Sequence record: PQ850614.1
Source of the DNA: Escherichia phage LorandFenyves_Bas91
Reading direction: 5' to 3' (one strand)
Length of the DNA stretch: 64,000 nucleotides
How positions within the stretch are numbered: the stretch's first letter is position 1; the number at the start of each line of letters is the position of its first letter. The translations under genes and the position numbers were made by a program. This document shows, piece by piece, positions 4,796-51,536 of the stretch. The notes under the pieces are model-generated. The model saw only the letters and a list, made by a program, of their open reading frames with translations. It searched no databases and was not told the origin of the DNA.

Positions 4796-5764
4796 ATGGG
4801 TGCAGGTGGTTTTCGTAAGAATACTGGTCGCAACAACACCACACTCCCGTACAACGTTGGGTTTCTCAATAATGTACAGGACACAGAAACATATAACGTA
4901 GCCGTGTATGATGAATTACAAAAAGTTAGCACAGCTACTAACCAAATGTTCCAAGCTATAGATGAAATTCACGAAGAGATTGATGTTCGTATTAAAGCTC
5001 TTAATGCAATGAATCTACAATTTGATGAGCTTGAGAATAGAATTACTACAGAGATAGAAACAGCTATTGCAGATATCCAAACACAGATGGGGAATCTCTC
5101 CACTGAAGATATTTGGGATAATTCTGTTCAACCTCCTGTAAAATTAGAAAGCACTGTATCTGGCTTTAAAACAAGTATTGAGGGTAACACAACTAAGATT
5201 CAAACGGTAGAAGGTATTGTCAATGACCAAGGTCAAGAGATTGCTTTAGTTCAGACAGAGATTCAAAATATTAATGGAAGCCTATCTCAGTATATGAAGC
5301 TCTCTGAGTATGAAGCTACGTGGGGTGTTAACTCTACAGTAAACGGAAGATATGCTGGGGTCAAGTTAACTAACAACGGAACAAACAGTCAATTCCAAGT
5401 AACAGCTAACAAGTTTATTGTTGGTGATGGCAGCTCTGGTAACACACCTTTTGTGTTTGAGGGTGGTAGGGCTAGAATGGAATTCGCTGACATAAAGAAC
5501 GTCAATATCACAACAGCTCAGATTGCTAACGCTAGAATCCAATGGGCACAGATCGATAACGTATCCATCTCCAATGCTCAGATTCAGAACTTGTCAGCGG
5601 ATAAGATTACTGCTGGCTCTATGTGGGGTTCTAACTGGAGACTTACTGTTGGTGGGGACTTTGTTATGGGTGGCACAGGTGGGGCACAATTGTGGATGAA
5701 TGGTAACAGAATAGACTTCTACGATGGAAGTGGTGCTCTGAGAATCAGGATAGGGAGTTGGTAA
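4796..5764 (+). CDS. tail fibre / host-specificity protein (lambda J C-terminal-like segment)
   Basis: Start moved from the track's 4730 to ATG 4796 (GGAGGA RBS, downstream of the terminator hairpin). N-terminal coiled coil. Segment 'FQVTANKFIVGD...PFVFEGGRARMEFADIKNVNITTAQIANARIQWAQIDNVSISNAQI' resembles host-specificity fibre tips. Confidence 0.75.
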   Translation: MGAGGFRKNTGRNNTTLPYNVGFLNNVQDTETYNVAVYDELQKVSTATNQMFQAIDEIHEEIDVRIKALNAMNLQFDELENRITTEIETAIADIQTQMGNLSTEDIWDNSVQPPVKLESTVSGFKTSIEGNTTKIQTVEGIVNDQGQEIALVQTEIQNINGSLSQYMKLSEYEATWGVNSTVNGRYAGVKLTNNGTNSQFQVTANKFIVGDGSSGNTPFVFEGGRARMEFADIKNVNITTAQIANARIQWAQIDNVSISNAQIQNLSADKITAGSMWGSNWRLTVGGDFVMGGTGGAQLWMNGNRIDFYDGSGALRIRIGSW

Positions 5765-50586: not shown

Positions 50587-50868
50587 TTACCACTCCTTAC
50601 CGGTTGTTGTTACAGAACCACCACACCACTGCGCATCGGATAAGGTTTTAGTCTCCTCATCTACTGCTGCACCATTCAGGCATGAGATACCACTGTAACG
50701 CATATCAATTTCACCAGAAGGAACCTTCTCGCCCTTATGCCAGCGAGAAACACAAACACCTTCCACTGCTACTGCACACCATCCATCAGGACGGCTCTGT
50801 ACGCAGCCTGTAAGGGCCACACAGACAAGGAAGATACAGATTAAGGATATTACACCACCCCAACTCAT
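50587..50868 (-). CDS. lipoprotein (93 aa)
   Basis: Signal peptide with lipobox: ICIFLVCVALTGC. Confidence 0.65.
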   Translation of the reverse strand: MSWGGVISLICIFLVCVALTGCVQSRPDGWCAVAVEGVCVSRWHKGEKVPSGEIDMRYSGISCLNGAAVDEETKTLSDAQWCGGSVTTTGKEW

Positions 50869-50887: not shown

Positions 50888-51002
50888 TGGTGGACTATCT
50901 GGAATCGAACCAGAAGCTCACTAAGAAAGTAATTCCCACTGTTATAAAAGCACTTGCCTCAACAGGGATACACTAACTCTGGTGCCGTACCCATACTAGC
51001 CC
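50888..51002 (-). other. 115-nt tRNA-like element (acceptor, D-arm-like and T-arm present; no canonical anticodon arm found by eye)
   Basis: 3' end TCTGG-TTCGATT-CCAGA + TAGTCCACCA. The 5' GGGCTA pairs with TAGTCC. It lies 11 nt downstream of tRNA-Arg on the same strand. The central ~64 nt does not fit a cloverleaf. Confidence 0.3.
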
Positions 51003-51013
51003 TTGTTTAAAAT

Positions 51014-51089
51014 TGGTCGGGACGGAAGGATTCGAACCCTCGTAAGGCGAGTTAGAAGCTCGCTGCCTGTTCCACTAGACTACGCCCCG
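51014..51089 (-). tRNA. tRNA-Arg(UCU): tRNA-Arg (anticodon UCU), CCA encoded
   Basis: Hand-folded 76-nt cloverleaf. Acceptor CGGGGCG/CGTCCCG. Anticodon arm GCGAG-CTTCTAA-CTCGC. T-arm GAGGG-TTCGAAT-CCTTC. Discriminator A + CCA. Confidence 0.85.
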
Positions 51090-51502
51090 ATAGATTTGAA
51101 ACCGTTATACTTACCTGCACATGATCTGTTACAAAAAGAATTTGCATATTTAACATTTCGCTTTTCTTTTTCAAAAGATCTTCCACAATAAGAGCAAACA
51201 ACTGAAATCATTGTTCTTCCAGTAGTTGCTTCTAATGTTGACTTCTTTCTGTGATTTTCTATGGAAAGTATCTGAAGATTAGATATGTCATCATTAGTTT
51301 TATTTCTGTCAATATGATCAACCTCCTCGTCTTCAGTTAGGTACCTGCCTATGTGACAAGACATTAAATATCTTGCGTAAGAAATGGTTGTCCTCTCCGT
51401 GTCGGTATTATACAAATCAACACGCTTCCTACCATCTCTGCTTGTTCTTAAGTAGCCCAATCGCCAGTCATTAACGAAGGGGTATTCTAACTCTATCTTC
51501 AA
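51080..51502 (-). CDS. HNH homing endonuclease
   Basis: EEVDHIDRNKTNDDISNLQILSIENHRKK plus a C-terminal CSYCG...CNRSC zinc motif. The last 10 nt overlap the tRNA 5' end. Confidence 0.8.
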   Translation of the reverse strand: MKIELEYPFVNDWRLGYLRTSRDGRKRVDLYNTDTERTTISYARYLMSCHIGRYLTEDEEVDHIDRNKTNDDISNLQILSIENHRKKSTLEATTGRTMISVVCSYCGRSFEKEKRNVKYANSFCNRSCAGKYNGFKSIGA

Positions 51503-51536
51503 AACCCCTCCATTGAGCTAAGGGTGCTGAGTTTGT

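Follow-up and report, generated by a model that had tools for sequence, protein, structure and literature searches.

Bacteriophage T4 encodes, at the 3' end of its transfer RNA (tRNA) cluster, the RNAs C (species 1, 139 nucleotides (nt)) and D (species 2, 119 nt), whose function is still unknown (PMC3014915, PMC9697503, PMC12685909). Forms of transfer-messenger RNA (tmRNA) that lack the coding sequence have been described in mycobacteriophage DS6A, in the mitochondria of jakobids, and in two plastids, and the DS6A form, which consists of the tRNA-like domain (TLD) only, inhibited the tmRNA of Escherichia coli, perhaps through titration of SmpB (PMC4131195, PMC11915505). The DNA analyzed here is a 64-kb stretch (64,000 nt, referred to as the window) from Escherichia phage LorandFenyves_Bas91 (PQ850614.1) that contains, at 50888–51002 on the minus strand, a 115-nt element with likenesses to both of these systems. 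Judged from its sequence, the element is a real, conserved, and unannotated gene for a tRNA-like RNA, and an alanine-type acceptor end is its most telling feature. All window features described below are on the minus strand; positions within the element are numbered as p = 51003 − window coordinate, and labels such as L021 denote loci of other phage records or contigs fetched for comparison.

In architecture and position, the closest analogue of the locus is that of T4. In T4 (70908–71918; L017 1409–2419), the segB homing endonuclease gene is followed by tRNA-Arg(UCU) (loop CUUCUAA) and then by RNA D and RNA C, a gene order that is also found in the window, in a phage of an unrelated family, and both RNAs are near the element in size. 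The fold of RNA C (z = −4.57) has two hairpins, one of them long and irregular, in addition to a terminal, acceptor-like stem and a GGUUCGAAUCC T-arm. It differs from the element in being without G3·U70, an encoded CCA, and a D-arm, and the T4 endonuclease is a GIY-YIG enzyme, whereas that of the window is of the HNH type. A MAFFT alignment revealed no convincing similarity between the element and T4 rnaC or rnaD, and a covariance model of the element (R2) had no match in the T4 locus at E ≤ 1.

With the TLD-only tmRNA the element shares its phage origin, the lack of an anticodon and of a tag reading frame, G3·U70, A73, CCA, and the T-arm, and its long helix is predicted to leave the body at the place of tmRNA helix 2. 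It is longer (115 nt as compared with ~65 nt for the organellar forms) and is recognized neither by ARAGORN nor by the Rfam tmRNA models. Assignment as a TLD-only tmRNA was rejected because the corresponding motifs are absent and a D-stem is predicted, and assignment as a full-length tmRNA because ARAGORN made no call with -m and 115 nt leaves no room for a resume codon, a tag open reading frame (ORF), and pseudoknots. Tag-like reading frames picked out by eye in the center were also discarded as unconvincing; one enters the T-arm and another ends in RQVLL and a stop codon. As compared with E. coli tRNA-Ala, the acceptor is identical save for the 4:69 pair, and the T-loop UUCGAU, U8, A9, and a GG-containing D-loop are shared, but the element has no anticodon arm, an acceptor of 6 bp, and a length of 115 nt, escapes tRNA finders, and is unable to decode. 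In the engineered tRNA scaffolds of Ponchon and Dardel (2007), an RNA of interest replaces the anticodon arm, and the products are reportedly processed correctly and highly stable in E. coli. In the element, likewise, the acceptor, T, and D frame is intact and the anticodon arm has given way to a foreign hairpin; the scaffolds, however, are artificial, whereas the element is natural and conserved.

Acceptor End and Fold of the Element

The element begins with the acceptor strand GGGCUA (p 1–6; 50997–51002), which pairs with 50892–50897 as G1-C72, G2-C71, G3·U70, C-G, U-A, and A-U, and ends with UAGUCC, the discriminator A, and an encoded CCA (p 106–115; 50888–50897). The acceptor end, GGG-CUA...UAG-UCC-A-CCA, can be compared with GGGGCUA...UAGCUCC-A-CCA in E. 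coli tRNA-Ala and GGGGCUG...CAGCUCC-A-CCA in ssrA. It carries G1-C72, G2-C71, G3·U70, A73, and CCA, invariant in all copies, with the 4:69 pair absent, and on the basis of sequence the alanine identity set is complete. Recognition by alanyl-tRNA synthetase (AlaRS) is confined to the acceptor end. The enzyme is said to charge acceptor minihelices that have no anticodon (Hou and Schimmel 1988; Francklyn and Schimmel 1989), so that the missing anticodon arm should be no obstacle to charging. Among 446 distinct phage tRNAs from the fetched loci, G3·U70 and A73 occur together in 16 of the 19 tRNA-Ala and in only 4 of the 427 others (0.9%). This combination provides the keys for AlaRS, which is the sole synthetase that acts on tmRNA (PMC3968760). 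From the acceptor sequence, we put the chances that the element can be charged with alanine at about even.

Between the acceptor strands, U8 and A9 precede a D-arm-like segment, UGG-GUACGGCA-CCA (p 10–23; 50980–50993; TGG-GTACGGCA-CCA in the DNA), which has GG in its loop and a predicted 3-bp stem. A long irregular hairpin with the apical loop AAGU (p 24–80; 50923–50979) replaces the anticodon arm in the constrained fold; the position of the variable region is taken by eight unpaired nucleotides, AGUGAGCU (p 81–88; 50915–50922), that are invariant in all copies, and these lead into the T-arm UCUGG-UUCGAUU-CCAGA (p 89–105; 50898–50914). The initial annotation of this DNA had delimited the 115-nt element and pointed out its T-arm (TCTGG-TTCGATT-CCAGA), the helix GGGCTA/TAGTCC, the CCA, and the D-arm-like part, all of which lie where it placed them; the 11-nt spacing that it gave between the CCA of the upstream tRNA-Arg and the element is also correct (51003–51013; 6 nt, CAUUUA, in SU10-type phages). 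In the 64 kb there are two occurrences of the T-loop motif GGTTCRANTCC, one in the tRNA-Arg and one in the element, as compared with 0.17 expected, and 0 chance matches are expected for a combined pattern of both element ends and the T-loop; the element is therefore above chance.

ARAGORN did not call the element in default, intron, tmRNA, or mitochondrial mode, two of which (intron and tmRNA) the initial annotation had proposed as a check. When the element alone was searched against Rfam at E ≤ 10, no tRNA match was obtained, and the tmRNA families gave only fragments of 8–11 bits over the T-arm. ARAGORN could be forced to a model only at a lowered threshold of 70%, namely a "tRNA-Asn" whose extra arm is unpaired and whose intron of 22 nt lies at 34/35. 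If the helices of the acceptor, D-arm, and T-arm are imposed, the center (p 24–80) forms a single long, irregular hairpin capped by an apical loop of 4 nt, and the eight unpaired nucleotides come after it. This cloverleaf-like fold (−31.4 kcal/mol) is 4.7 kcal/mol better than one with an insertion and a 4-bp anticodon-like arm (−26.7 kcal/mol), and pair probabilities are 0.70–1.00 over the long hairpin and, where the two folds are compared, 0.86–0.95 as against 0.02–0.03 for the 4-bp arm with the loop UUUCUUA. The latter also falls short of the 5-bp stem of an anticodon arm and has U, not a purine, at position 37. Folded alone, the long hairpin has z = −2.14. The T-arm, A73, and CCA are present, and the six acceptor pairs produce an 11-bp acceptor/T stack with a G7 × A mismatch. 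According to this model, the element is not a decoding tRNA and has no anticodon arm, which agrees with the failure of the initial annotation to fold one from the center.

Conservation and Relatives of the Element

The region shares 99.7% identity with Escherichia phage vB_EcoP-CHD5UKE1 (species Kuravirus SU10) and is related to 96 records of phiEco32-like podoviruses in the subfamily Gordonclarkvirinae. The element is 97–100% identical in the 29 phage records that carry it, where it forms a conserved island between variable flanks, and it is annotated in none of them. Pairwise conservation was determined for eight phages of the genera Kuravirus, Suseptimavirus, and Nieuwekanaalvirus. In all 28 pairs the element is 97.4–100% identical, as compared with 28–99% (mostly 65–83%) for the next 300 nt and 38–98% for the 90 nt upstream. 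Six distinct sequences of the element are found, with four variable sites (p 15, 24, 48, and 73) that are all compatible with the proposed fold: p 15 is in the D-loop and p 48 in the apical loop, and the changes at p 24 (G24·U80 to A-U) and p 73 (U31-A73 to U·G, in element numbering) preserve pairing. All 34 modeled pairs remain paired across the copies, and the six acceptor pairs are invariant. The element is retained while its tRNA-Arg(UCU) neighbor varies among four alleles and the gene downstream between two; in phiEco32, NJ01, and others that do not have it, a tRNA-Arg fills the same slot and homology restarts directly after the CCA.

These sequence comparisons indicate that the element is a discrete, strongly conserved module and not a remnant. 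A degenerate tRNA, one of the options in the initial annotation, is contradicted because the element is conserved where the flanks diverge and because the true remnants at this locus (the 19-nt stub and the TH38 3' half described below) are truncated. That annotation had also named a 3' remnant of a deleted tRNA as an outcome that would overturn its view, and the relatives have an intact, conserved element instead.

Neither the element nor a canonical-size tRNA with the same ends was found in E. coli genomes, plasmids, 185k species genomes, or JGI metagenome contigs, and IMG/VR contained no match to either, save one distant relative. An "uninterrupted" tRNA ancestor that shares the ends of the element, for which the initial annotation had suggested looking among relatives, was present in none of the collections searched. 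Over 126 loci (1.1 Mb), model R2 identified no locus with the same center and only acceptor/T-arm matches, the best of which scored 30.5 bits (ordinary tRNAs score ~20). A match of 23 of the 24 nt at the 3' end of the element to a Jiaodavirus tRNA-Gln was set aside as probable convergence of common T-arm/acceptor sequence; the two are unlike in discriminator and in register.

The distant relative (L021 2352–2482, minus strand, 131 nt) is located in an uncultured phage, within a cluster of 14 tRNAs. It has GGGCUARUA, UGGGUACG, AGUU(U)AGUG, the T-loop, and GAUAGUCC-A-CCA in common with the element; its T-stem, UUGGG/CCCGA, differs and still pairs, and its center is different. It keeps UGGGUACG but is without the CCA strand of the D-arm, the D-stem of the element being a prediction. 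A looser scan for the T-loop, 6 nt, and UCC-A-CCA, a spacing that is one pair shorter than in canonical tRNA-Ala or tmRNA, matched at least 120 viral contigs, and 113 of the 121 matches are not called by ARAGORN. Among the matches listed, 46 have a complementary 5' strand, and ~20 of these start with GGG (and so have G3·U70), lie within 3 kb of at least three tRNA genes, and range from 57 to 131 nt in length.

One group of 66–69 nt has tmRNA-TLD motifs (GGAUUCGACG and GCGGAC), G3·U70, and ACCA and lacks a coding domain; it had no match among cultured phages. Its members in IMG/VR are L064 1508–1576, L117 5538–5606, L087 10328–10396, L113 321–389, L059 4082–4147, and L101 5242–5309. Several of them sit in tRNA clusters of uncultured phages and resemble TLD-only tmRNAs, which have so far been reported for one phage, DS6A. 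Other alanine-type elements (GGGC.../...GUCC-A-CCA), all missed by standard tRNA finders, are located inside large phage tRNA clusters and are either 57 nt (L079 4911–4967, L074 7308–7364, L129 5180–5236, L122 12872–12928, and L065 49–105) or 105–122 nt long (L127 4728–4842, L109 6609–6730, L066 4984–5096, L124 9252–9363, and L098 8746–8850). A permuted tmRNA called by ARAGORN at L024 4456–4935 (minus strand) was rejected as probably false because Rfam gave nothing there and the "tag" is within a protein ORF; the same locus shares the 3' module of the element and has two tandem uncalled alanine-type elements with 3' ends at 4845 and ~4736. In the relative L010 (~2251–2345; IMGVR_UViG_2595698804, 77,315 nt), the tRNA-Arg is succeeded by a different element of ~95 nt and then by an additional small ORF. 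This element is a long hairpin of very high stability (−44.4 kcal/mol, z = −4.97) with the 3' end CUACCA and has no Rfam match.

The Tandem tRNA-Arg and the HNH Cassette

The tRNA-Arg(UCU) upstream of the element (51014–51089), described as a 76-nt tRNA with an encoded CCA in the initial annotation, is the only tRNA that ARAGORN calls in the 64 kb, and it scores 52.9 bits with the Rfam tRNA model (gathering score 29). It is preceded by an endonuclease ORF of 140 amino acids (51080–51502), which matches Pfam HNH_3 (PF13392) at 27.5 bits (cutoff 24.8). The ORF has a TTG start behind GGAGG and a TAG stop inside the tRNA, and its overlap with the tRNA 5' end is the 10 nt given previously. Directly upstream of it is a 19-nt stub, GCACCCTTAGCUCAAUGGA (51509–51527), that aligns with nt 1–19 of the SU10/IME267-type tRNA-Arg and whose last bases now serve as the ribosome-binding site of the HNH gene. 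The alignment indicates that the HNH gene, with its own tRNA-Arg allele, replaced nt 20–76 of the resident tRNA-Arg. This stub of a displaced allele supports the earlier view of the gene as a homing endonuclease, and the cassette, as far as can be judged from its sequence, is what one would expect of a free-standing homing endonuclease accompanied by a copy of its target gene that presumably resists cleavage. It illustrates how such an enzyme can replace a tRNA allele while supplying its own copy. The same HNH and tRNA-Arg cassette is present in YW01, KM01, TH43, and CHD5UKE1, with the same tRNA allele in YW01, and the 115-nt element is just outside the replaced tract.

Downstream of the element is a gene (50587–50868) of the phage lipoprotein family PF24052, whose ribosome-binding site begins 11 nt past the CCA of the element. 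No promoter or terminator was found between the tRNA-Arg, the element, and this gene. Phages that are otherwise alike carry, in the slot before the lipoprotein gene, at least five tRNA-Arg(UCU) alleles that differ strongly from one another (L001/L006 2405–2481, L007 2407–2481, L008 2405–2481, L003 1910–1985, L015 541–615, and 51014–51089 in the window). In TH38 the 3' half of an SU10-type tRNA-Arg, from the anticodon loop to the CCA (L015 ~653–694), persists behind the new allele at 541–615. The variety of alleles suggests that they have been replaced repeatedly, either through homing or, possibly, under an arms race with defenses that target tRNAs. The phiEco32-type tRNA-Arg(UCU) (L001 1789–1865; L008 2405–2481) has G3·U70 (GCGCCCU/AGGGUGC), which is unusual for a non-alanine tRNA, but C2-G71 and the discriminator G73.

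Possible Roles and Significance

The element probably specifies a functional, stable tRNA-like RNA. The explanation that we favor, although we hold it at a little under an even chance, is that it is the gene for a non-decoding tRNA mimic. The element would be co-transcribed with the tRNA-Arg in the leftward gene cluster and excised, as a tRNA is, by RNase P and 3' trimming. The RNA would adopt an L-like shape with a 57-nt hairpin in place of the anticodon arm, and AlaRS, because it reads only the acceptor end, could attach alanine to it. Since such an RNA cannot read a codon, its role may be that of a mimic or decoy, directed at the factors that recognize Ala-tRNA-like ends, namely AlaRS, EF-Tu, or the SmpB/tmRNA system of ribosome rescue. 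Its action might be like that of a TLD-only tmRNA that inhibits trans-translation, a plausible mode given that the DS6A form inhibited E. coli tmRNA; that the element acts on ribosome rescue in particular is nevertheless doubtful. A tRNA-like decoy was among the options raised by the initial annotation, which overlooked the alanine set of G3·U70 and A73, and it is the one that the evidence favors.

Several observations weigh against a mimic of this kind. No SmpB homolog is encoded in the window (tblastn, best E 0.61). The hallmarks of a tmRNA TLD, a GGAUUCGAC-type D-loop and GGAC before the T-arm, are absent, and a 3-bp UGG/CCA D-stem is predicted instead. Six clear mini-TLDs were used to build a covariance model (R1), which scores the element at 19.7 bits (E 0.015) with only the T-arm and 3' end aligned, and it is non-discriminating because an ordinary tRNA-Ala does as well (18.5 bits; E. 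coli ssrA, 12.4 bits). The acceptor/T stack has 11 bp, not 12, and the 4:69 pair is C-G, not G-C, either of which may lower recognition. The unconstrained minimum free energy structure is a rod (−35.9 kcal/mol, z = −1.83), 4.5 kcal/mol more stable than the cloverleaf-like fold at −31.4 kcal/mol, because the D region (p 10–25; 50980–50993), with which it pairs the T region (p 89–103; 50898–50914), is nearly complementary to the latter; CCAGA is present twice. The two alternatives could represent a conformational switch or be due to chance, and the natural variant G24A would break a G-C pair of the rod, yet keeps A24-U80 in the cloverleaf-like fold. No compensatory double changes occur over the 34 modeled pairs; with four variable sites the variation is too small for covariation to be informative, so that the support for the fold comes from thermodynamics and from two changes, each on one side of a pair. 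The high identity may also stem in part from recent lateral spread instead of selection.

The main rival is a natural tRNA scaffold with an active cargo hairpin. The frame would confer processing and stability, the central hairpin would be protein- or RNA-binding cargo, and the alanine marks would be an irrelevant inheritance from the ancestral frame, making the product essentially a stable RNA of the T4 RNA C type. Consistent with this, the center, loops included, is as invariant as the frame; L021 has the frame in common only, other uncultured phages have the same kind of frame around varied centers of 57–131 nt, and T4 RNA C, which has none of the alanine marks, joins a long irregular hairpin to an acceptor-like stem and a T-arm. 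Irrelevance of these marks is unexpected, however, because G3·U70 with A73, rare in non-alanine tRNAs (0.9%), is kept in every copy and in L021. Antisense targets of at least 12 nt are absent from the window, where a single 11-nt match is at chance level, and E. coli genomes and plasmids show no similarity to the element. We regard a scaffold as rather unlikely, and it is improbable that the element instead works in cis, as a processing or punctuation signal at which cleavage by RNase P/RNase E would free or stabilize the downstream mRNA. In favor of such a signal, the CCA is 11 nt ahead of the downstream ribosome-binding site, at the exact position that tRNA-Arg holds in phiEco32, where homology restarts after the CCA, and the genes have no promoter or terminator between them. 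The neighboring tRNA-Arg, however, would already supply such a site, processing needs leave the 60 invariant central nucleotides unexplained, and UKE3 has a different downstream gene with an unchanged element.

The initial annotation also considered an intron- or insertion-bearing tRNA, which here would mean a decoding tRNA with ~45 nt inserted between the D-arm and a short anticodon arm (UUUCUUA, anticodon UCU) or with a spliced intron. Although p 71–85 can be drawn as a 4-bp stem with a 7-nt loop that contains UCU, and ARAGORN proposes its intron model at the 70% threshold, this is very improbable. The fold is 4.7 kcal/mol worse, with pair probabilities of 0.02–0.03, U would occupy position 37, and 2–3 nt would be all that is left for the variable region; no anticodon arm was found, Rfam gave no tRNA score at E ≤ 10, and the collections searched held no version of canonical size. 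E. coli is without a splicing system for such an insert, and alanine identity combined with an arginine anticodon would miscode. Equally slight is the likelihood of a functionless, decaying tRNA pseudogene or a recombination scar. At this locus, a hotspot for replacement of tRNA alleles, scars are left behind, and about two-thirds of the related phages do not have the element, but its identity is 97–100% across genera while the flanks diverge, the acceptor strands, T-arm, and CCA are intact in every copy, frame-breaking mutations are found in 0 of the 29 records, and the genuine scars at the locus are truncated pieces.

It is possible, although we think it unlikely, that the element is the first case from a cultured coliphage of a wider, unannotated class, in which alanine-charged, anticodon-less tRNA mimics encoded in tRNA operons act in trans on the host machinery that recognizes Ala-tRNA, above all SmpB/tmRNA rescue, in favor of the phage. 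To such a class would belong the further alanine-type elements, at least 20 in number and 57–131 nt long, that go uncalled in tRNA clusters of uncultured phages, among them the look-alikes of TLD-only tmRNA of ~66–69 nt. Standard tRNA and tmRNA finders overlook a class of tRNA-like genes in phage genomes; phiEco32, SU10, and the BASEL phage Bas90 belong to a well-studied group, yet each genome paper gives "a single tRNA." If the RNA is made and alanylated, the element would provide a tractable E. coli model for the role of the "extra" RNAs in phage tRNA clusters, which for T4 RNA C and D is a question that dates from the 1970s. It would likewise serve as a model for the question of whether phages manipulate ribosome rescue or AlaRS/EF-Tu by means of tRNA mimics, and for the construction of natural tRNA scaffolds.

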